Counted from the whole stretch's first letter, positions 5,579-39,330 are shown. The stretch is 59,657 nucleotides of DNA, filler included, from Pseudomonadota bacterium (GCA_043820105.1; 4 parts of 4 records of this genome joined end to end with filler, not necessarily neighbours in it); one strand, 5' to 3'. Notes: generated from the sequence alone by a model not told the origin. Made by a program: numbers and translations.

Positions 5579-5668
5579 TAAGTGGTAAGTGATAAGTGGT
5601 AAGTGGTAAGTAAATTACAGTGTTTATTTCTTACGACTTACGACTTACGACTTACGACTTACGACTTA
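5579..5668. repeat. Inverted pair of heptamer arrays: (TAAGTGG/A)x4.7 - 18 nt - (CTTACGA)x5.5
   Basis: 5579-5611 and 5630-5668; arms complementary at 6 of 7 positions per unit. Confidence 0.92.
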
Positions 5669-7885: not shown

Positions 7886-7998
7886 TAAGTGGTAAGTGAT
7901 AAGTGGTAAGTGGTAAGTGGTAAGAAAAATTGTATAAAACATATAGAAAAAACTATATGATCTAAAACTTACGACTTACGACTTACAACTTACGACTT
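7886..7998. repeat. Inverted pair of heptamer arrays: (TAAGTGG/A)x5.5 - 43 nt - (CTTACGA)x4.4
   Basis: 7886-7924 and 7968-7998; same layout as 5579-5668. Confidence 0.92.
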
Positions 7999-9102: not shown

Positions 9103-9135
9103 TAAGTGGTAAGTGTTAAGTGGTAAGCTGTAAGT
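9103..9135 (-). repeat. CTTACCA-type heptamer array (4.7 units) ending 3 nt before the SD of the lipoprotein gene
   Basis: Plus strand TAAGTGG TAAGTGT TAAGTGG TAAGCTG TAAGT. Confidence 0.9.
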
Positions 9136-9230
9136 ATCAAAAACACAAATAATATGCAACAATTTTGTAAACCACTAAATTCAAAATCCCACCAGCAACC
9201 AGCAAGCACCCACTACTTCACCTAACTGAT

Positions 9231-9399
9231 CACCAGTGCACCAAAGCACCAGAAAGATAATGAAACCAAATACTAAATACAAATCTTACCACTTACCACT
9301 TACCACTTACCACTTACCACTTACCACTTATATCCTAGCACCAGTGCGCCAGAGCACCAGAAAGATAATGAAACCAAATACTGAATACAAATCTTACCA
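9231..9399 (+). repeat. 108-bp higher-order tandem repeat containing (CTTACCA)x6.5; second copy cut by contig end
   Basis: 9231-9291 vs 9339-9399 differ at 3 of 61 positions. Confidence 0.9.
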
Positions 9400-9499
9400 N
9401 NNNNNNNNNNNNNNNNNNNNNNNNNNNNNNNNNNNNNNNNNNNTTAATTAATTAANNNNNNNNNNNNNNNNNNNNNNNNNNNNNNNNNNNNNNNNNNNN
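9400..9499. other. Artificial assembly linker (N44-TTAATTAATTAA-N44)
   Basis: Ns plus six-frame stop spacer, identical three times. Confidence 0.98.
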
Positions 9500-10794
9500 A
9501 TAAGCATGAAAATAATAACCAAAATAGCTCCAATTAATAAAGCATTCTTTCCTTTCGTGATGGAGTCTTTTCCCAGACTTGGACCAACTGTTCTGTTTTC
9601 TTCAACAATAACAGGGGCTGGCAAAGAACCAGCTCGCAAAACAACTACTAAATCTGATGCTTCTTTAAACATATCTTCTGCATTCATTCCTGAACCTAAA
9701 GTAATTCTTGCTCTGCCTGAAGGAATCTTTTCGTTAATAATCGGTGCTGATGAAACATTGCCATCTAAGATAATTGCAAGTTGGTTTCCAACATTGGCTC
9801 CTGTAATTCTTCCAAAGATTTTAGCACCTTCTCTGTTGAATTCCATGGAAACAGCATATTGATTAAAACCAGTGTTATCCTGCATTACCCTTGCATCTTC
9901 AATAACTTCACCTGTTAATAGGGTTTTCTTTTGAATTAAATATGGTATTTTGGTAACTTCCCCAGTTGTTTTATCTCTTTCAATTTGATAGGCAATTTCG
10001 CAGCCTTCTGGGAGAGTTTCTTTCATAACATTATTTAAAGTTTTATTGTCATGTTCTTTTTCAAGCTTACCTTCTTTAATAGCTTTATCTATAGCTTTTT
10101 CTAAAGTAAGCCTATCCATTGTTTTATCAACGAGTTTAAATTCAAGTAGGGCTGTTCTTCTAATAATATTTAAAGCCCTGGCAGGATCTTTAACCCCTGG
10201 TAGTTGAACAAGTATTCTTTTATCGCCTTGAATTTGAATATTAGGTTCCGTAACGCCAAATTCATCAATTCTATTTCGAATTGTTTCAATTGCTTGATCA
10301 ATAGCTTGTTTCTTAATGCGATTTGCCCATTCTTCTTTAGGGGCAAGAACTATAAAATTATCACCTTTAGTTGAAGCCGTTTCATTATCAAAATCTAAAA
10401 TTTCAAAGTAATCATTTTTTATTTTGCTATAGCCTTTTTCCTGGGATTTGCCTGTAGCAAATTCTAAAATTATCTTCATCTCTATGCTATCAATATCAAC
10501 GTTCTTAACAAAAATGGAATCCTTTTTTAGATATTCCTTCATATTGTCGCCGATTCTGGTAATTTCATTCTCTAAGGCAACATTAACATCAACCCCCAAA
10601 ACAAGGTGAATTCCGCCTTGAAGATCTAGACCTAGTTTTATTAATTCTTTTGGAAAAAACGAACTTTCTGTATCTACAGTCGAAAAATCTGCTCCCATTT
10701 TATTCCAGTTTGTAATTGTTGGAATTAAATAGTAAACAGAAAATAATATGGCTATAATAACCAATGAGACCTTTGTCCACCACCACTTGGCCAT
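9500..10794 (-). CDS. secD: Protein translocase subunit SecD (3' truncated by gap)
   Basis: LGLDLQGG, RNRIDEFGVTEP, LRAGSLPAP, VGPSLG. Confidence 0.96.
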
Positions 10795-10815
10795 AACAAT
10801 CTCCTTTAATAAAAT

Positions 10816-11178
10816 TTATTTTTTATTGTTAGCATTTTGCTGTGCAGCCGGTTCAGAGCTTTCAATTTTACCAGAAGCTGCAACTGATGATTTTGATATC
10901 CTTATTCTAACATTATTTGCAATTTCTAAGGTAATGAATTCATCTGTAACGCCCGCTACTTTTCCGTATATTCCACCCGCTGTAATAACTTCATCTCCTC
11001 GTTTTAAAGCGCTAACAAAGTTTTGATGTGTTTTTTGCTTTTTTGTTTGAGGTCTTATTACAATAAAATAAAAAACTGCAATCATTAATATGATTGGTAA
11101 CAACATCTGTAACAATCCCGGGCTTTCTCCGCCAGCTTGACCATTTGATGCCATTGCATAAGCTACGTCTATAAACAT
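10816..11178 (-). CDS. yajC: Preprotein translocase subunit YajC
   Basis: FYFIVIRPQ, GDEVITAGGIYG; tgt-yajC-secD synteny. Confidence 0.96.
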   Translation of the reverse strand: MFIDVAYAMASNGQAGGESPGLLQMLLPIILMIAVFYFIVIRPQTKKQKTHQNFVSALKRGDEVITAGGIYGKVAGVTDEFITLEIANNVRIRISKSSVAASGKIESSEPAAQQNANNKK

Positions 11179-12278
11179 TTCTTAAATTCCTTATAAAAAT
11201 TATCAAAATTTTTAAACTCTATATTTTGCTGAATTTTTTTAATAAGTCCACTATAATAATGCAAATTATGCAAAGAATTTAAAATACATGCTGAAATTTC
11301 TTTTGCCATAAAAAGATGTCTTAAATATGATTTTGAGAAATTTTGACAGGTATAACAGGCACAATTTTCATCAAGCGGGCTATTGTCTTTTAAATATTTA
11401 TTATTTTTAATATTAACTGTGCCTTTTGAAGTAAACAAGGTGCCGTTTCTAGCGTTTCGCGTTGGCATTACACAGTCAAACATATCAATTCCAAATCGAA
11501 CACATTCAACTAGATCAAGAGGGGTACCAACTCCCATTAAATATCTTGGTTTATTTGTTGGCAATAGTTTTGCGGTAAGCTCTGCAATTCTATACATGTC
11601 TTCTTTTGCTTCTCCAACTGATAAGCCCCCAATTGAATAAGCATCAAAATCAAGCTCACATAAACCCTTAGCTGAAACTTTTCGAAATTCTTCTGAAACA
11701 CCACCTTGAACGATTCCAAATAAAGTTTGTCTTTCATCGCAAACCTTTTTAAACTCAATTTGTGATCTTTCGGCCCATCTCAAGCTAAGATTAGTAGAAT
11801 TTAATACATATTCATCTTCATTTGGCAGGCTTACACATTCATCAAGCTGCATCATAAAATCAGAACCCAGGTCCTTTTGGATATTCACAACCTTTTCAGG
11901 TGTAAAAAAATGCCTTGAACCATCAATATGAGAGGCAAATTCTACCCCATTTTCTGAAAGTTTTTTTAAAGCAGCCAAAGAATGAACCTGAAAACCACCA
12001 GAATCAGTTGCAATATGACCATTCCAGCCTACAAATTTATGCAACCCTCCTTGAGATTTTATTACATCAGAACCCGGTCTTAAGTATAAATGATAAGTAT
12101 TACTGATAAAAATATTAAACCCAGCTCCTGTAAGATCTCTAGGCAAAATCGCCTTAACAGACCCAGCTGTCGAAACAGGCATAAAAAGGGGCGTTTTAAC
12201 TTTACCACGAGAAGTTTCAATTGTGCCTGTCCTGGCTTTGGAATGAGGATCTTTTGCATCAATCGTAAAATTCAGCAT
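11169..12278 (-). CDS. tgt: Queuine tRNA-ribosyltransferase
   Basis: NTYHLYLRPG, TDSGGFQV, DMFDCVMPTR, CACYTC zinc motif. Confidence 0.97.
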   Translation of the reverse strand: MLNFTIDAKDPHSKARTGTIETSRGKVKTPLFMPVSTAGSVKAILPRDLTGAGFNIFISNTYHLYLRPGSDVIKSQGGLHKFVGWNGHIATDSGGFQVHSLAALKKLSENGVEFASHIDGSRHFFTPEKVVNIQKDLGSDFMMQLDECVSLPNEDEYVLNSTNLSLRWAERSQIEFKKVCDERQTLFGIVQGGVSEEFRKVSAKGLCELDFDAYSIGGLSVGEAKEDMYRIAELTAKLLPTNKPRYLMGVGTPLDLVECVRFGIDMFDCVMPTRNARNGTLFTSKGTVNIKNNKYLKDNSPLDENCACYTCQNFSKSYLRHLFMAKEISACILNSLHNLHYYSGLIKKIQQNIEFKNFDNFYKEFKKCL

Positions 12279-12292
12279 ATTTTTGTATTCAC

Positions 12293-12331
12293 ATTAATTA
12301 TTATTTATTAATTATTGATTATTATTTATTT
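12293..12331. repeat. ATTAATT/ATTGATT array just upstream of tgt start
   Basis: Direct reading. Confidence 0.75.
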
Positions 12332-12398
12332 CAAAAAACCGTTACCTATCTATAATCATTTGAAATATCAAGGAAAAAGTTGATTGCAAAGTGTTATG

Positions 12399-12434
12399 GA
12401 GAACAAGAGCGCAGGAGAACAAGGGAACAAGGGA
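12399..12434 (+). repeat. Octamer array GAGAACAA GAGCGCAG GAGAACAA GGGAACAA downstream of queA
   Basis: 8-bp periodicity; inverted relative to 13536-13583. Confidence 0.88.
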
Positions 12435-12459
12435 GATCAAGAAGTCGTTTCAGGTTGTA

Positions 12460-13536
12460 TTATAGGATTAGCATACAATCCCCATAAGAAAAAAGCCGAT
12501 ATTTTTCACGAATTGCTTCTTCATAAGCATTTTGCATGAGCTTTTGAGATGCAAATGCTGAGACCATGATAAAAAGGGAGGATTTGGGTTGGTGAAAGTT
12601 TGTTAAAAGACCACCTACTGCCTTAAATTCATATCCTGGATAAATGTACATTTCTGTCTTATTCCAAGAATCTAGTTTTGCTTCTTTATTAGTAAAAAAG
12701 CTTTCAATAGTTCTAACTGATGTGGTACCTATTGCTATTATTTTATTTCTATTTTCTTTGGCAATTTTGATAGCATCATATGTGGGTGTTGAAATAAAAT
12801 ATTCCTCATAATGCATTTTGTGTTCTAATATATTTTCACTTCTAACTGGCAAAAATGTTCCAATACCAACATTTAATGTAACAGGATGCATTTTAATGTT
12901 TTTTTCTTTTAATATATTAAGAATATTTTCAGTGAAATGCAGGCCAGCAGTTGGAGCAGCGCAAGCAAGACCTTTTTGAGCATAGACAGTTTGATATCTT
13001 GAGCCATCAAGATCTTTATCATAATCGCGTTTCAAATATGGTGGGATTGGCATTTGACCAAAATAATCTATCCAATTTAAATGATATTCTATAAAATCTT
13101 TATTTATTGAGTTTTCATAAGTGGAATTGCTGTGATCAAAATATATTTGATAGGACATATTTACTTTTTCTTTTATTACAATCACTGTTGTATTATCTTC
13201 AAGTATTAAGTTTTCATCTTTTCGTAAACTTCTTGAAGAATTTACCATTGCCTCCCAAAGCCTATCATTTTGATTTATTTGCTTTAATAAAAGGATTTCA
13301 ACTTTTCCACCTGTTTGTCTTTTTGCAAAAAAACGAACCTTTTCAACCCTCACATCATTATAAACAATTATATCATTTTCATTAATATAGTTTGGAAATT
13401 GTTTAAACGTATTGTGTGAAAAAGACTGGTTTTCTCTATCAACAATAAGCATTTTAGAATCATCACGGTTTTTATTAGGATATTTAGCGATAAGCTCTTC
13501 TGGAAACATATAATTATAATTTTTAATATTATTCAT
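12460..13536 (-). CDS. queA: S-adenosylmethionine:tRNA ribosyltransferase-isomerase
   Basis: PIPPY, YQTVYA, AAPTAGLHF, GTTSVR, TNFHQP, YRLFSYGD. Confidence 0.97.
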   Translation of the reverse strand: MNNIKNYNYMFPEELIAKYPNKNRDDSKMLIVDRENQSFSHNTFKQFPNYINENDIIVYNDVRVEKVRFFAKRQTGGKVEILLLKQINQNDRLWEAMVNSSRSLRKDENLILEDNTTVIVIKEKVNMSYQIYFDHSNSTYENSINKDFIEYHLNWIDYFGQMPIPPYLKRDYDKDLDGSRYQTVYAQKGLACAAPTAGLHFTENILNILKEKNIKMHPVTLNVGIGTFLPVRSENILEHKMHYEEYFISTPTYDAIKIAKENRNKIIAIGTTSVRTIESFFTNKEAKLDSWNKTEMYIYPGYEFKAVGGLLTNFHQPKSSLFIMVSAFASQKLMQNAYEEAIREKYRLFSYGDCMLIL

Positions 13537-13583
13537 TGTTCTCTTGTTCCCTTGCGCTCTTGTTCTCTTATTCCCTTGTTCTC
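13536..13583 (-). repeat. Six-unit octamer array (GAGAACAA/GGGAACAA/GAGCGCAA) forming the whole spacer before the queA ATG
   Basis: Runs from the upstream TAG into the ATG. Confidence 0.92.
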
Positions 13584-14893
13584 TATTTTTCTTCTTTCAA
13601 AGATCCAAGCGACTCCTGCAACTTATCCAAGTCTTTTTTATATTTTATTGATTCAATCATTTTACTCTTATTATCAGAAGCTACTGATAAAGAAAGTTCT
13701 TTTAAGACTTCAAGAAACTCTTTTATCTTTTTATTTAACAATGAATATTCATTGGTTTTTTGAATAATTATTTTATCTTTTTTAGAAAGCTTTTCAATAT
13801 AGGATTTATAGAATCCAAAATCTTGTTTTAATTGCACTTCTAATTTATTAAGATTACCTAAACTATTCTTTCCTTCTAAAATATTTTCAGAAACAAAATC
13901 TAAAGCTTCGCTAATTTTTCCATTTAAATCTGACTCTTTTATTTCATTTTTTAGAGTTAGAATTAAGATATCCATACTATTTAATTTATTTTCAATTATT
14001 AGTTTATTATTATCAATTCCTTTAAAAATAATTTCAAGTTGTTCAAATCCTTTTGATAAGTTAAGCATTTGATCAATATCCATTTTTAGGCTTTTTGTAA
14101 GGTTTGCAAAAAATTGATCACATTTTTCATTATAAACATTTATATCATTAAATTTATTTTTCATGTTTCTTATTTCCAAGAAACTTCTTTCTGCATCCTT
14201 TGCATGATCAATTGTTTTGGAAATCAACTCATTGCCAAGAGTTGTACCGCTCTCATGGACTTCGTTACTTTTTCTTGTTAGTAATTTAAGTTTTTTAATA
14301 ATATCTGCCAAAACTTCCACAAGTTCATTTAATGGATTTTGATATGGGCCTGGAATTAGTTCAGCGCTTTCCTGGCGTATGATTTCATTAATTTGGTCTT
14401 TTAATAAGGCAATATCTCCAATGAGATTTCTTGATACATCTTGATATTTAATATTTTTTTCAATTAAATCTGAAATGGAAACCATTGATCTTTCAAGGTC
14501 CTCAATTTCATCTGATGTGAAAATAAAATATTCCTTAATATAATTAAGGTTAAGCAGCGAGCTTGCATGATTCCTAATTAGTTTTATTGGAATAATTACT
14601 CTGAAGTAGATGTATAATAAGGAAAAGAATAATAATATTAAAAAAACAAAAGAAGTAATAACAATATTTTTTCTAACTGATAAAACTAAAACTTTTGAAA
14701 TTGAATATGTTTTTTCAAGATTTTCTTCACTGGTATCTTCAATTTTTAATGAATCAATGGCTCTTTGAGCTTCAACATAAGAAAAGTAACTCAAAGTAAG
14801 CAAGGTTCCCACTGTAATAATACTTGTAAAAATCACCGGCAATAATAACTTAATAAATAACCTTTTCTTATATTTCCTTTTTTTCTGCGTCAT
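13583..14893 (-). CDS. Membrane protein with two TM helices, HAMP-like linker and long coiled coil (degenerate chemoreceptor-like)
   Basis: TM-loop-TM, PIKLI...DEIEDL HAMP pattern, helical C-terminus. Confidence 0.65.
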   Translation of the reverse strand: MTQKKRKYKKRLFIKLLLPVIFTSIITVGTLLTLSYFSYVEAQRAIDSLKIEDTSEENLEKTYSISKVLVLSVRKNIVITSFVFLILLFFSLLYIYFRVIIPIKLIRNHASSLLNLNYIKEYFIFTSDEIEDLERSMVSISDLIEKNIKYQDVSRNLIGDIALLKDQINEIIRQESAELIPGPYQNPLNELVEVLADIIKKLKLLTRKSNEVHESGTTLGNELISKTIDHAKDAERSFLEIRNMKNKFNDINVYNEKCDQFFANLTKSLKMDIDQMLNLSKGFEQLEIIFKGIDNNKLIIENKLNSMDILILTLKNEIKESDLNGKISEALDFVSENILEGKNSLGNLNKLEVQLKQDFGFYKSYIEKLSKKDKIIIQKTNEYSLLNKKIKEFLEVLKELSLSVASDNKSKMIESIKYKKDLDKLQESLGSLKEEK

Positions 14894-14908
14894 TTTCTTC
14901 CTAAACCA

Positions 14909-14946
14909 TTAATTATTAATTATTATTTATTGATTATTAATTATTC
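14909..14946. repeat. 38-bp AT-rich heptamer-based element downstream of serS
   Basis: 36/38 identical to 16247-16284. Confidence 0.82.
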
Positions 14947-14949
14947 TCA

Positions 14950-16221
14950 TTATTTAGGCTCTATCACCTCTATCCCCATCATATAAGGCCTCAAAACCTC
15001 AGGCACAACAACAGAGCCATCTTTTTGCTGATTCATTTCCAAAATTGGTATCAATATTCTTGGAGAAGCAATAGCTGTATTATTTAAGGTATGGACGAAT
15101 CTTATTTTTCCTTCTTTATCTCTATATCTTATGTTAAGCCGTCTTGCCTGGAACTCGTGTAATGTTGAGCATGAGTGAGTTTCACAATAAAAGTTCCTTG
15201 AAGGCATCCATGTTTCAATTTCATGCTTCATAACTTGCCCAAGTCCGATTTCTCCCGTACAAGCTAAAGCAACTCTATATGGAAGTTTTAAGGCCTGCAT
15301 TATTTCTTCTGCATTGTTTAAAATAAAATTATGTTCTTTTTCTGATCCCTCAATACAGTTTTTAGAAATTACGACTTGTTCAACTTTTGTAAATTGATGA
15401 ACCCTGTAAAAACCTTTTGTGTCTTTTCCATAACTTCCGGCTTCTCTTCTAAAACATGGCGATAATCCAACAAATCTTAAAGGAAGTTCGTCTTCTGATA
15501 ATATTTCATTGAGTCGGGTTGAAACCAAAGAAACTTCACTAGTCCCAACGAGATTTAATTCATCTTTCTCCATTCTATAAGTATCTTCTACACCTAATGG
15601 AAAAAAGCCTGTTCCAAACATTGCAATATCTTTTACCAAAACAGGAACATGATGATAAGAAAAGCCCTTTTTAATTATATGCTCAACAACATATCTGCAA
15701 ATTGCTTGTTCTAAAAGCGCTCCTTCATTTTTTAATAAATATGATCTTCCCCCTGCAAACTTAGAAGCTCTTTCAAAGTCAACAATATCAAGCGAATGCG
15801 CAAGCTCTATATGATCTTTTAGTTCAAAATCAAACTCTGGAATTTCACCGACTTTTCGCAGTTCAACATTATCTTCATCAGAAACTCCTTCAGGTACAGA
15901 GGGATGAGGTATGCCAGGAACCATTAACATTATATCATTTATTTGATTTTCATATTCTTTTAATTCGGGCTCTAGCCCTTCAAGACTTTGTTTTAATTCT
16001 TTACCTTGGCTTATAGCTTCTTGCCTTTTTTCAGGAGAAAGTGTGCCAATGCTTTTTGCAATAATATTTCTTTTATTTCTAATCTCTTCAACTTCACCAA
16101 GTAATTTTCTTCTTTTTTCATCAATATTAATTAGCTTATCAACATCTACTTTAATTCTTTTTTTCCTAGCAGCTTCTTTAACAATTTCAACATTTCCCCT
16201 AATAAAATTAATATCAAGCAT
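14950..16221 (-). CDS. serS: Seryl-tRNA synthetase
   Basis: MLDINFIR, GTSEV, CFRREAGS, RVHQFTKVEQ, HTLNNT. Confidence 0.97.
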   Translation of the reverse strand: MLDINFIRGNVEIVKEAARKKRIKVDVDKLINIDEKRRKLLGEVEEIRNKRNIIAKSIGTLSPEKRQEAISQGKELKQSLEGLEPELKEYENQINDIMLMVPGIPHPSVPEGVSDEDNVELRKVGEIPEFDFELKDHIELAHSLDIVDFERASKFAGGRSYLLKNEGALLEQAICRYVVEHIIKKGFSYHHVPVLVKDIAMFGTGFFPLGVEDTYRMEKDELNLVGTSEVSLVSTRLNEILSEDELPLRFVGLSPCFRREAGSYGKDTKGFYRVHQFTKVEQVVISKNCIEGSEKEHNFILNNAEEIMQALKLPYRVALACTGEIGLGQVMKHEIETWMPSRNFYCETHSCSTLHEFQARRLNIRYRDKEGKIRFVHTLNNTAIASPRILIPILEMNQQKDGSVVVPEVLRPYMMGIEVIEPK

Positions 16222-16246
16222 TTTCAGGCCTTCCTAATTTATTTTG

Positions 16247-16284
16247 TTAATTATTAATTATTATTTATTAGTTATTAATTATTC
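16247..16284. repeat. 38-bp AT-rich heptamer-based element upstream of serS, overlapping the gyrA stop
   Basis: Direct repeat of 14909-14946. Confidence 0.82.
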
Positions 16285-18708
16285 ACACTCTTCATCTTCT
16301 TTAGCTATAGCAATATCTGTAACCAGCTCATTCTTATTAACACTAATCAACTTAACCCCTTGAGTATTTCTTCCTATTGTTGAAATATCTTGTACTCGCA
16401 TCTTAATAAGCTTTCCGCCATTTGTAATGATCATAATTCTATCTTTATCAAAAACAGAGGCTGTTCCAACGACATGTCCATTTTTTTCTGTAACTTTAAT
16501 TGTAAATATTCCTGTTCCGCCTCTGGATTGAATTCTATAATGTTGAAGCAGAGTGCACTTGCCAAAACCCTTTTCTGTAACAGTCAAAATCTTTGAATCA
16601 GCATCAAGAATTTCCATTCCAACTACTTTATCATCCTTTTTAAGATTAATACCTTTTACACCAGCAGCTGTGCGACCCATTGGCCTAACACCAGCTTCTT
16701 TAAACCTAATAGACATTCCATTTCTGGTTGTAATGAAAATATCTTGCTTTCCATTTGTGAGATCAGCTGACATTAGTTGATCATCATCTTTAATATTAAG
16801 AGCAATAATACCGCCAGATCTCGGATTTGAAAAACTCATGAGATCTGTTTTCTTTATTATTCCTTTTTTGGTGAGCATTACAATATAACTACCTTCTGTG
16901 AATTCTCTAACTGTTAATATTGCTGAAATTATTTCACCTTCAGAAAGATTTAAAAGATTAACAATTGGCTTTCCTTTGGCTATTCTTGCTCCTTCTGGAA
17001 TATTGTGAACTTTTAACCAATAAAGTTTTCCTCTATTTGTAATAGCCAAAATATATGAATGCATGGATGCAATGAATAGATTTTTCAAGAAGTCTTCATC
17101 CTTGGTTGTCATACCTGTCACGCCTTTTCCGCCCCTTTTTTGACTCTTAAAGGAAGATATGCTATTTCTTTTTATATATCCAGTATGAGAAATTGTAACA
17201 ACCATTTCCTCATCTTGAATTAGGTCCTCTAAGCTCATATCTTTAATTTCAGATGTTATTTCAGTTCTTCGATCGTCATTATATAATTTTTTTATAGCTA
17301 TAAGCTCTTCTTTTATTATATTAAATAAGAGTTTTTCATCTGCTAAAATTTCTTTATATTCTTTTATTTTCTGAATTACTTCTTCATATTCAGTAACTAG
17401 TTTATCTTGTTCAAGACCTGTGAGTCTATGTAATCTCATATCTAAGATTGCTTGAGATTGTTTATCTGATAAATCAAAACGTTTTATTAATTTTTCTTTT
17501 GCAACTTTTGCATCTGCTGATTTTTTTATAATTTCGATAACTTCATCAATATTTTCAATGGCTATTTTTAAACCTTCTAATATATGAAGCCTTGCTTCTG
17601 CTTTTTTAAGTTCAAAAATTGTTCGTCTAGTTACAATCTCTTTTCTATGTTCAACAAAATAGACTAAAACTTCTTTTAAATTTAACACCCTTGGCATTTT
17701 GTCCACAATAGCTAACATGATAATACCGAAAGTAGATTCAAGAGCTGTATGTTTAAAAAGTTGATTTAAAATAACTGTTGAGATAATATCTTTTTTAAGC
17801 TCAATAACCATTCTCATTCCGGTTCTATCAGACTCATCTCTAATATCTGAAATACCTTCAATCTTTTTATCTTTAGCAAGCTCTGCTATTTTTTCAACTA
17901 ATCTGGCTTTATTTACTTGATAAGGAAGCTCTGTAATAACAATTCTTTCCCTATCATTTATTCCCATTGGCTCAACGTTTGCCTTTCCACGCATTCTTAC
18001 AATACCGCGACCTGTTTTATAGGCACTAACTATTCCATCTTTACCGCAAATATAACCGCCTGTTGGAAAATCAGGGCCAGGAACTATTTTAATTAAATCT
18101 TTTATTTCACAATCTGCATTATCAATTAAATAAATAATAGCATCAACAATTTCACCAAGATTATGAGGAGGAATATTTGTTGCCATACCTACTGCTATTC
18201 CTGAAGATCCATTTATTAACAGATTTGGAAGCTTAGATGGCAAAACAGAAGGTTCAAAAAGTGATTCATCATAGTTTGGTGTAAAATCAACTGTTTCTTT
18301 GTCAAGATCTTCCAGCATTTCTGACGCAATTCTATCCAGGCGAACTTCTGTATACCTCATAGCAGCAGGTGAATCGCCATCAACTGAGCCAAAATTACCC
18401 TGGCCATCTACAAGTGGATATCTTAAAGAAAAATCCTGAGCCATTCTAACAATAGTATCATAAACAGCTGTATCTCCATGGGGGTGATACTTACCAATTA
18501 CATCACCAACTACACGTGCGGATTTTTTATAGGATTTATTCCAGTAATTATTCATTTCGCTCATAGCGTACATAACACGCCTATGAACAGGTTTAAAGCC
18601 ATCTCTGACATCTGGTAATGCTCGACCTACAATAACACTCATTGCATAGCTCATGTATGAGGTCTTCATTTCATCTTCAATATTAACTCTTATGAGGTTT
18701 GTTTCCAT
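16279..18708 (-). CDS. gyrA: DNA gyrase subunit A
   Basis: YHPHGD, AAMRYTE, GyrA-box QKRGGKG. Confidence 0.98.
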
Positions 18709-18727
18709 CTATTTTTAATCCTTTAAA

Positions 18728-18796
18728 AATAATTGAGAATTGATTATTAATTATTGATTATTTTAATCCTCAATAATCAATGGTTAATGGTCAATT
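18728..18796. repeat. Inverted pair of ATTGATT / TCAATAA-type heptamer arrays between gyrB and gyrA
   Basis: 18728-18762 and 18770-18796 are in opposite orientation. Confidence 0.75.
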
Positions 18797-18809
18797 TAAC
18801 TCTAAAATT

Positions 18810-21227
<2,418 letters not shown>

Positions 21228-21280
21228 TTACTTATCCTTAATTGAAAAAATTGACCCATATTTTACACTAAAAAACTATC

Positions 21281-22369
21281 TTATGTCACCTGTAAAAAGG
21301 CGAATTTAGAAGAAAATTTATTTTTTTTATATGTGTCAATTTCAGTGGTTGTACATAAAACTTGAATATCTAAATCAGCTAAAATTGAAGATAACCTATC
21401 TCTTTTTATAATATCAAGCTCAGCTCCTAAATCATCCCATAAAAATATGGGTTTATTGTTAAAATTGTTTCTCAAAATATATAATTCTGCTAGTTTTAAT
21501 AAGACAGCTAGCTCCTTTGTTTCACCCTGTGAAGTAAAAAACCTGGCTTCCTTATTATTTCTAATAAAAATTATATCATCTCTATGAGGACCAATTAAAG
21601 ATTTTTGTCTAATTACTTCTTTTTCCTTAAGCTTATCAAAAAGCAGCTTAAAAGCTTCTTTATTTTCCCAATAATTGAAATCAAATTCCTTGTTTTCATA
21701 ATAGTTCACATTTATTTTGAGATCATCATAATATTTTAATAAAATTTCATTTAGATTAAGGTTTAATAATTCAACATATTTAAGTCGTTTTTCTAATAAT
21801 TTTGAAGAATATGTAAAAAGCTGTTCATTCCAAATATAAATTTCATCAAAAGAACATGATCTTTGATAAATTCTTATTAAAACAGCATTTCTATTTTTAA
21901 CAATTTTTTTATATATTAGAAGATCTTTTAAATAAATATTATCTAATCTGGAAAGAGCTGAGTCTATAAAATTTCTTCTTTCTTGCGGAGATCCTTTAAT
22001 TGTCCAAAAGTCATTTGGAGCAGATAAAACAATGGGAGTATTTTTTATAGAATTTGTTATGCTTCTTTCAATATTACCATTTATCAGAAATTTCTTTTGT
22101 TTTCCATTAAATATAGAATTGTATTGGGTATCGCCAAATGAATGATTTGCATGAACTTCTATATCAAAACCATCCCTACCTTCTTTTATTAAATGATCTT
22201 TATTTTTTGTTCTAAATGAGGTTTGATGAAAATTATAATAAACAGCTTCAATAATATTTGTTTTTCCAATTCCATTTAAACCCCAAAAAAAGTTAACACC
22301 TTTTTGCAGATTTAATGAAAGGTTTTCATGATTTCTGAAATTTTTTATATTTATAGTTTTTATAATCAA
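21281..22369 (-). CDS. recF: DNA replication/repair protein RecF
   Basis: GLNGIGKTN, GPHRDD, SQGE; between dnaN and gyrB. Confidence 0.93.
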   Translation of the reverse strand: MIIKTINIKNFRNHENLSLNLQKGVNFFWGLNGIGKTNIIEAVYYNFHQTSFRTKNKDHLIKEGRDGFDIEVHANHSFGDTQYNSIFNGKQKKFLINGNIERSITNSIKNTPIVLSAPNDFWTIKGSPQERRNFIDSALSRLDNIYLKDLLIYKKIVKNRNAVLIRIYQRSCSFDEIYIWNEQLFTYSSKLLEKRLKYVELLNLNLNEILLKYYDDLKINVNYYENKEFDFNYWENKEAFKLLFDKLKEKEVIRQKSLIGPHRDDIIFIRNNKEARFFTSQGETKELAVLLKLAELYILRNNFNNKPIFLWDDLGAELDIIKRDRLSSILADLDIQVLCTTTEIDTYKKNKFSSKFAFLQVT

Positions 22370-22400
22370 CGTTTAGTCTCATTTTAAGAATGATTTATTA

Positions 22401-22435
22401 CTGTACGCCGTACTCTGTACGCAGTACGCTGTACC
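22401..22435. repeat. Heptamer array (CTGTACG-like)x5 with palindromic GTAC core between dnaN and recF
   Basis: CTGTACG CCGTACT CTGTACG CAGTACG CTGTACC. Confidence 0.88.
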
Positions 22436-22453
22436 AAAGGATTTATTAAACTC

Positions 22454-23584
22454 TTATAGTCTCACTGGCATAATTACATTCAAATATTCTTCATTATCAT
22501 TAAACTGAAGCAAAACAGGGCTAACTTCGTCACTCAAGAAAATAGATACATTTTCATCAACTATATTTGTTAGTACATCCAGAAAGAATTTGGAGTTAAA
22601 ACCAAGATTCATTTCAACATCTCCATTTACATTTTGAATTTCTTCTTTTGATTCACCTATTTCTGGGTGTCTGTAAGAAAGCTCAATAGCGCCTCTTTTA
22701 AAATTAAAATTAATACATTTAATTTTATCTTGAGTATGCGATGAAATAGAAGAAACTCTTTTTAAAGTATTAAAAAGATCTTCTCTTTTTAAATCAAATT
22801 TTCTATCTGTTTTTTGTGGAATTATTCTTCTATAGTCTGGAAATTTCCCATCAATAACTCTCATTACTAAAAAAGTATCATCTTTTGCAAAAACAGCCTG
22901 ATTTTTCTTTAATTGAAAATATATTTTATCTCCACCTTCATCAAGAAGCTTTTTAAGTTCTAAAAGACCTTTTTTAGGCAAAATAACTCCGCCTTTTGCC
23001 TTTATATCAAAAGCTTTATTCATTTCTTTTTCAATTAATGCTAGCCTATGGCCATCTGTTGCTACCATTCTTAACATATTTTTTGAAGTATCATCCATTT
23101 TTTCAAGATAAACACCATTTAGATTATATCTTGTTTCTTCTTGAGAAGTGGCATAAATAGTTTTTGTAATCATTTCTTTAAAAGAATCTAAATCAAATTC
23201 CAAAAGATCCTCTTTATTATTTTCTTCAATTTTAGGAAATTCAGTAACAGGCATGGTAACAAGTTTAAAAACTGATTTTCTACTTGAAACAATAACTCTA
23301 TTATCAGGATCTAATAAAATACTAACCTTTCCTTCCGGAAGCTCTCTGACAATATCACATAAATGTCTTGAAGAAACTAAAACAGCTCCTTCTTCTTGAA
23401 TTTCAGCATCATACATTGTTTGAAAAACAATATCTAAATCAGTGGCTTTAAGTTCTATTTTACCTTTACCTTTTGTGGCTAAATATACATTTGTTAATAC
23501 AGGTAAGGTTCCTTTTTTATCTGTAATTGATTGTATCTTTGATAATCCATTTAAAAAAGAATTTCTTTCAATTGAAAACTTCAT
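22454..23584 (-). CDS. dnaN: DNA polymerase III beta sliding clamp
   Basis: ATDL, VATDGHRLA, FPDY, C-terminal IMPVRL. Confidence 0.97.
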   Translation of the reverse strand: MKFSIERNSFLNGLSKIQSITDKKGTLPVLTNVYLATKGKGKIELKATDLDIVFQTMYDAEIQEEGAVLVSSRHLCDIVRELPEGKVSILLDPDNRVIVSSRKSVFKLVTMPVTEFPKIEENNKEDLLEFDLDSFKEMITKTIYATSQEETRYNLNGVYLEKMDDTSKNMLRMVATDGHRLALIEKEMNKAFDIKAKGGVILPKKGLLELKKLLDEGGDKIYFQLKKNQAVFAKDDTFLVMRVIDGKFPDYRRIIPQKTDRKFDLKREDLFNTLKRVSSISSHTQDKIKCINFNFKRGAIELSYRHPEIGESKEEIQNVNGDVEMNLGFNSKFFLDVLTNIVDENVSIFLSDEVSPVLLQFNDNEEYLNVIMPVRL

Positions 23585-23600
23585 TTTAAAGCTCCTAATA

Positions 23601-23674
23601 CAAGTAGTAAGCTGTAAGTGATAAGTTATAAGTAAAAAACTTAAAACCTAATACATAAAGCTTAAAACTTTAAA
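23601..23674. repeat. Degenerate inverted heptamer pair upstream of dnaN: (TAAGNNN)x5 then (CTTAAAA-like)x5
   Basis: 23601-23635 and 23640-23674; first array ends 4 nt from SD AGGAG. Confidence 0.75.
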
Positions 23675-23726
23675 TTTAAATTATGCTTAATTATAGTTCA
23701 AAATATTTTTTATACTTATATTATAT

Positions 23727-23826
23727 NNNNNNNNNNNNNNNNNNNNNNNNNNNNNNNNNNNNNNNNNNNNTTAATTAATTAANNNNNNNNNNNNNNNNNN
23801 NNNNNNNNNNNNNNNNNNNNNNNNNN
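23727..23826. other. Artificial assembly linker
   Basis: N44-TTAATTAATTAA-N44. Confidence 0.98.
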
Positions 23827-39230: not shown

Positions 39231-39330
39231 NNNNNNNNNNNNNNNNNNNNNNNNNNNNNNNNNNNNNNNNNNNNTTAATTAATTAANNNNNNNNNNNNNN
39301 NNNNNNNNNNNNNNNNNNNNNNNNNNNNNN
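39231..39330. other. Artificial assembly linker
   Basis: N44-TTAATTAATTAA-N44. Confidence 0.98.

Follow-up and report, generated by a model that had tools for sequence, protein, structure and literature searches.

The two complementary octamer arrays that enclose queA are most probably (we put the probability at about 70%) independent members of a dispersed octamer family, and their inverted arrangement a chance juxtaposition. The original prediction had taken the octamer for a rare repeat type whose copies act as matched brackets, and the pairing was to be regarded as coincidental if the octamer proved frequent in both orientations genome-wide. It is frequent in both: at least 123 GRGAACAA-type arrays of 3–9 units were found in the source genome, 56 on the plus and 67 on the minus strand. 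Forty-nine other arrays would pair with the leader array of queA better than its actual trailer does. A striking local picture, one gene between complementary arrays, can arise from such a dense genome-wide repeat family.

The window, i.e. the whole stretch of DNA analysed (59,657 nt), consists of four contigs joined by N linkers: C98, C102:64826-79052, a 15.4-kb piece and C105. The queA locus lies wholly inside one of them, C102:64826-79052, which corresponds to window positions 9500-23726.

Layout of the queA locus

A Pfam search placed queA in a minus-strand housekeeping cluster with the order dnaN-recF-gyrB-gyrA-serS-ORF(436 aa)-queA-tgt-yajC-secD. The features of the locus and of its surroundings, in window coordinates, are:

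5579-5668, 7886-7998 and 9103-9330: heptamer hairpins, TAAGTGG arrays followed by reverse-complement CTTACCA/CTTACGA arrays
9400-9499, 23727-23826 and 39231-39330: contig joints, N linkers around a 12-nt filler
11169..12278, minus strand: tgt (queuine tRNA-ribosyltransferase; Pfam PF01702, E 1.4e-152), the next gene downstream of queA
12293..12330, minus strand: ATTAATT-type heptamer array in the leader of tgt, a different family, within the queA-tgt spacer
12399-12430, plus strand: trailer array of four octamers, GAGAACAA GAGCGCAG GAGAACAA GGGAACAA, then a partial GGGA (to 12434)
12460..13536, minus strand: queA, S-adenosylmethionine:tRNA ribosyltransferase-isomerase, 358 aa (Pfam PF02547, E 3.8e-111)
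12460-12462, minus strand: TAA stop codon of queA
13534-13536, minus strand: ATG start codon of queA
13536..13583, minus strand: leader array of six octamers, GAGAACAA GGGAATAA GAGAACAA GAGCGCAA GGGAACAA GAGAACAA, purine-rich on the mRNA
13583..14893, minus strand: upstream ORF of 436 aa without a Pfam family, whose TAG stop (13583-13585) shares one base with the leader array
14908-14956 and 16243-16283: ATTAATT-type heptamer arrays just upstream of the starts of the 436-aa ORF and of serS

Six octamers had been described as the whole spacer before the queA ATG, and this is what we find at 13536-13583. The leader array takes up all 47 nt between the upstream ORF, which ends in TAG, and the ATG of queA; its first G is the G of the stop codon and its last A the A of the start codon, and no further start codon occurs inside it. 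The trailer array reads UUGUUCCC UUGUUCUC CUGCGCUC UUGUUCUC on the minus-strand mRNA, where it is pyrimidine-rich. The gap between the queA stop and the trailer is 29 nt; counting the partial fifth unit shortens it to 25 nt, the distance given before. Another 120 nt separate the trailer from the tgt start, within a queA-tgt spacer of 181 nt. The best inverted repeat is formed by 12399-12430 and 13536-13567 (32 nt, 91% complementary, arms 1105 nt apart). A two-unit pattern with at most two mismatches had six matches in the window, where shuffles expect 0.18; all six fall inside the two queA arrays, in agreement with the earlier remark that no such array was seen elsewhere in the window.

The relatives of QueA share 33-45% identity with it, the best one 45%, and a QueA query against metagenomes returned one locus with 37% identity. 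tgt adjoins queA in five of 11 distant genomes or loci, three of which also have yajC. The GC3 of queA is 0.195 and that of its neighbours 0.19-0.23. With this widespread gene order and neighbour-like GC3, queA is native to its context. Consensus scans of 11100-15000 revealed no terminator-like sites and no excess of promoter-like sites over shuffles, and no Rfam match was found in 11000-15200 at E up to 1. In the Pfam search, the dnaN-secD run of ten ORFs comprised housekeeping families and one family-less ORF, with no recombinase or transposase among them. We infer that both arrays are co-transcribed with queA.

A dispersed octamer family with positional rules

The source genome is a 3.81-Mb draft in 113 contigs, with 32% G+C and 93% completeness. 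In the whole genome, TRF detected arrays of three or more copies with period 7 (869) and period 8 (179), the commonest octamer units being AACAAGGG (47 rows) and AACAAGAG (40 rows). The most frequent heptamer family, AAGTGGT, counts 157 arrays genome-wide and includes the TAAGTGG hairpins of the window; the AATAATT heptamer class counts 98. The 123 octamer arrays come from a dedicated scan that accepted the units GRGAACAA and GAGCRCAA in runs of at least three. Exactly four units make up 56 of these arrays, and a stereotyped four-unit layout, GRGAACAA GAGCGCAA GRGAACAA GRGAACAA, recurs. The GAGCGCA variant, which had been read as a feature linking the two queA arrays, is common property of the family: it is present in 63 of the 123 arrays, and in 43 it is the second unit.

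An (GAGAACAA)n array, 7/8 purine, is a mirror repeat, and mirror-repeat purine tracts are of the kind able to form triplex (H-)DNA. Because the unit read backwards is its own rotation, reversed-pattern controls are invalid for such arrays; a scan of the reversed genome gave 64 'control' arrays. Shuffles and permutations served as controls in place of the reversed genome.

Array context was counted with a crude gene model built from longest ORFs (3016 ORFs; 86% of the genome coding), by which 97 of the 123 octamer arrays are intergenic. In 36 of these 97, a stop codon on the same strand precedes the start of the array by no more than 12 nt (mostly 0-7 nt), and the array is purine-rich on the mRNA. 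At the junctions with the stop codon, TAA or TA|G replaces the CAA|G of a unit. By comparison, not one of the 39 arrays that have an opposite-strand start as upstream neighbour lies within 12 nt of it. Co-directional spacers hold 31 arrays in sense and 18 in antisense orientation, the queA trailer being one of the 18. Five arrays, the queA leader included, fill the whole spacer from stop to start, and only seven of 52 end within 12 nt of a start codon. That the mRNA carries the purine strand just after stop codons may reflect a constraint that acts on the repeats at the RNA level or is linked to transcription.

The octamer family is an 8-nt companion of the ~870 STRR-like heptamer arrays that fill gene spacers in this genome, and slippage is the probable origin of the arrays. 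The leader array obeys the family rule, as it begins at the preceding same-strand stop and is purine-rich on the mRNA, and it could act as an intercistronic linker, an unstructured A/G-rich leader that offers a Shine-Dalgarno contact of median strength through its AAGGG. This SD-like motif, 12 nt before the queA ATG, gives -5.5 kcal/mol with the anti-SD, computed against the genome's own standard 16S tail (genome median, -4.7 kcal/mol); the tgt leader makes essentially no SD contact (+0.4 kcal/mol). The trailer array is an antisense-oriented copy in a co-directional spacer.

Some octamer arrays have further features in common. Five of them (C19:1820, C46:47, C46:2796, C79:6290 and C84:23316) share near-identical 25-nt 3' flanks, and some of these five also share 5' flanks; they belong to a longer dispersed repeat that has several of its copies at contig ends. 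Contig ends lie in repeats, since several contigs share their first 60 nt. Two further groups of octamer arrays with common flanks were observed. Arrays are also present deep inside long ORFs, unconfirmed as single genes, at C43:4965-7931, C83:24845-26893, C83:29242-30924, C88:66554-67654 and C99:73716-74711. These are always in the purine sense and would encode stretches rich in E/Q/N/K/G/T/R.

Leader-trailer pairing and the bracket question

The expectation that the 3' trailer can pair with the leader was borne out in silico. The predicted leader-trailer RNA duplex has an energy of -47.8 kcal/mol, and when the minus-strand RNA of 1221 nt is folded, the stem is present in the MFE structure and in the centroid structure alike. 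The queA-tgt spacer has no significant local structure (z = 0.77), which leaves the trailer with no competing fold. Long-range pairing between leader and trailer is, on these models, physically plausible. It is not specific to the partner: the duplexes of the leader with the 122 other arrays have a median energy of -46.6 kcal/mol, and the actual trailer comes 50th in the ranking. Any two oppositely oriented arrays are nearly complementary, so leader and trailer can pair if they are co-transcribed, and the complementarity of the queA arrays follows from the uniformity of the octamer family.

Neighbouring arrays do not favour the queA arrangement. Consecutive octamer arrays 251-3000 nt apart form 18 pairs: 12 direct, four inverted with the pyrimidine arm first and two inverted with the purine arm first, the latter enclosing queA and a MiaB/RimO-type gene. 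Uniform random placement predicts 9.9 +/- 2.9 pairs at these distances, a quarter of which, ~2.5, would by arithmetic be of the queA type. An orientation rule does exist at short range, where seven arrays with inverted partners within 250 nt have the purine arm first and none the reverse, but it is gone at 250-3000 nt (6-7 versus 8-9 arrays).

A test blind to repeat family took 2965 ORFs and matched the 130 nt on one side of each against the 130 nt on its other side, with a score of at least 20 required. The genome-wide check for inverted repeats around single genes came out positive in one respect, as inverted flank matches were found at 12 genes against 4.9 +/- 2.25 in shuffled flank pairs (5 of 1446 rounds reach 12). 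It failed to single out inversion, as direct matches were found at 16 genes against 5.3 +/- 2.26 (none of 1446 rounds); these 16 were obtained with the 9-mer seeding used for the permutation, and full alignment gave 17. Same-family arrays exceed shuffled flanks around single genes, so array placement is not fully independent. Local clustering occurs whether the arrays are direct or inverted, with no preference for inverted brackets. The idea that the repeats act as matched brackets is not supported, given the partner rank (50/122), the count of queA-like pairs (2/18) and direct flank matches being as enriched as inverted ones. Partner rank, orientation of neighbouring pairs and shuffled flanks together provide a reusable test for bracket claims.

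The second purine-first octamer bracket, at C95:17355-18915 (positions 855-2416 of locus L137), encloses a methylthiotransferase with UPF0004, Radical_SAM and TRAM domains. Its pyrimidine-reading arm ends 15 nt before the next gene, which has a bifunctional nuclease domain. Both purine-first octamer brackets enclose tRNA-modification genes, which counts against coincidence, as does the strength of the queA stem as the predicted ground state of a 1.2-kb RNA. Members of the S23p/23S-IVS protein family (PF05635) served as a positive control: the genome has 16 matches (e.g. C88:61956-62267, C30:10214-10534 and C43:9396-9692), 11 of them over the Pfam cut-off and three of these 11 with in-frame stops. 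Inverted heptamer arrays lie on both sides of three of these 11 small genes, showing that a gene-in-loop architecture exists here. The remaining genes with bracketing flanks have no common function.

It is unlikely, though worth weighing, that the two arrays form a functional long-range stem, in which the trailer would hide the queA ribosome-binding region and start, RNase III would cut the duplex, and queA would be down-tuned or excised in the manner of rRNA/IVS stems. Such a stem would be consistent with its place in the MFE and centroid structures, with a predicted duplex that reaches the base before the AUG, and with a locally unstructured trailer. The genome encodes RNase III, as well as Rho, and no terminator lies between the genes; another tRNA-modification gene sits in the second purine-first bracket, and the S23p cassettes have the same layout with heptamers. 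The likeness to 23S rRNA IVS/S23p elements lies in the inverted arms that enclose an ORF and could form a long RNase III-substrate stem, here a near-perfect flanking duplex of 32 nt (91%). However, the gene enclosed here, queA, is a conserved housekeeping gene that keeps its usual place in the operon, the loop measures 1.1 kb, and the arms are not mutually specific. The 50th rank of the true partner, queA-like inverted pairs at or below chance, the loss of the hairpin orientation rule beyond 250 nt and the equal enrichment of direct flank matches all argue against a selected stem, and the leader would already have undergone transcription and translation well before the trailer is made. A bolder version, which we consider a long shot, would make purine-first inverted octamers a reusable RNA bracket: short loops would give spacer hairpins, long loops would remove or switch off single cistrons by way of an RNase III stem, and queA and the MiaB/RimO-type gene, both for modification of the tRNA anticodon loop and both within housekeeping operons, would be co-tuned by the logic of S23p/23S IVS elements. 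Under the preferred reading of independent family members, pairing of leader and trailer, if co-transcribed, would most likely be an unselected by-product.

Two further explanations place the function of the arrays in a binding protein or in the DNA itself. We see only a small chance that the arrays are sites for a repeat-reading protein, a nucleoid-associated or RNA-binding regulator, at which opposite-strand pairs might cooperate as proposed for Geobacter metallireducens. The stereotyped layout (GAGCGCA as second unit in 43 of 123 arrays, four units in 56) suggests something beyond pure slippage. In the sections of the G. metallireducens report that concern them, the Class 1 'global regulator binding sites' are described as 24 opposite-strand pairs at variable distance, each site with four tandem octanucleotides GTTGCTYN, and are guessed to bind IHF/HU (PMC2700814). 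These sites resemble the present arrays in their four tandem octamers (56 of 123 here), in dozens of copies per genome and in being species-specific; they differ in consensus and in being paired as a rule (24 pairs); the 123 octamer arrays here are mostly single and form four pairs within 250 nt and six inverted ones at 251-3000 nt. Likewise, the TAACTGA direct repeats of marine Beggiatoaceae, located just upstream of start codons, have been proposed in the corresponding passages to have a translational role and to be S1/Csp/CsrA sites (PMC4679880). They too are intergenic, end a few nt from the start codon and are patchy across phyla, and their spacers are said in those passages to be without canonical ribosome-binding sites (PMC4679880). 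Our octamers, by contrast, mainly begin at a stop (36/97), few end at a start (7/52), and unit and period are different. Furthermore, the CsrA family was not found in the 93%-complete source genome; most octamer arrays are unpaired, and the stop-codon strand rule points to RNA or transcription, not to symmetric DNA binding.

It is very improbable that the arrays delimit DNA able to invert, or a cassette with which queA was inserted, as the original prediction had offered at the DNA level. The 32-nt inverted repeats do flank exactly one gene, and S23p cassettes at other places in the genome likewise lie between inverted arms. Against this stand the widespread queA-tgt-yajC order (tgt in 5/11, yajC in three of them) and the native GC3, which give no sign of a foreign cargo, and the ten neighbouring ORFs, which include no recombinase. 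Among public sequencing runs, the stretch was found in four groundwater DNA runs and in no RNA run. In these four, where the source organism is present at only ~2x and in short contigs, a single 158-nt read contig spans the right junction (13467-13624) with 0 differences and in the assembled orientation. An apparent queA-skipping joint (12430 to 13537, with 27 intervening letters) proved to come from elsewhere in the genome, the hairpin at C83:35061-35150.

Relation to known repeats and occurrence in other genomes

STRR heptanucleotide repeats are said to have been first described by Mazel et al. in 1990, in heterocystous cyanobacteria. The octamers share with STRR the short tandem arrays (3-9 units), the hundreds of dispersed copies that are almost all intergenic, the strand asymmetry, and the hairpins formed by adjacent inverted arrays. 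Units are arranged head to tail (six and four at queA), and dispersed intergenic copies account for 97 of the 123 arrays. They differ from STRR in the 8-nt unit (7 in STRR), the stereotyped variant GAGCGCAA and the non-cyanobacterial host. As the period is 8 and not 7, we file them as an octamer member of a wider STRR-like class and not as STRR proper. Heptameric repeats have been described in Xanthomonas and Nostoc, as presented in part of a further report (PMC4692102); a literature search found no paper on GRGAACAA arrays. The durable result of this work is an 8-nt counterpart of the STRR heptamers that starts at the stop codon with its purine strand in the mRNA.

No octamer arrays were found in the three nearest genomes (two of the same order, one of the same class), nor any tandem arrays beside their queA fragments. 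The composite GRGAACAA-GAGCGCAR-GRGAACAA had no exact match among genome and metagenome contigs outside the source genome. Unrelated phyla carry the plain (GRGAACAA)3 array at 118 or more sites, and there too it keeps its post-stop bias: among 80 loci, with four double-listed loci counted once, a stop lies at most 15 nt before the array in 24 loci in the purine sense and in six in the pyrimidine sense.

Several (GRGAACAA)n loci each were observed in Acidobacteriota MAGs. One Roseiflexaceae MAG includes ten or more such loci (L037, L038, L050, L051, L080, L087 and others), several of which directly adjoin GAACCRA-type heptamer arrays.
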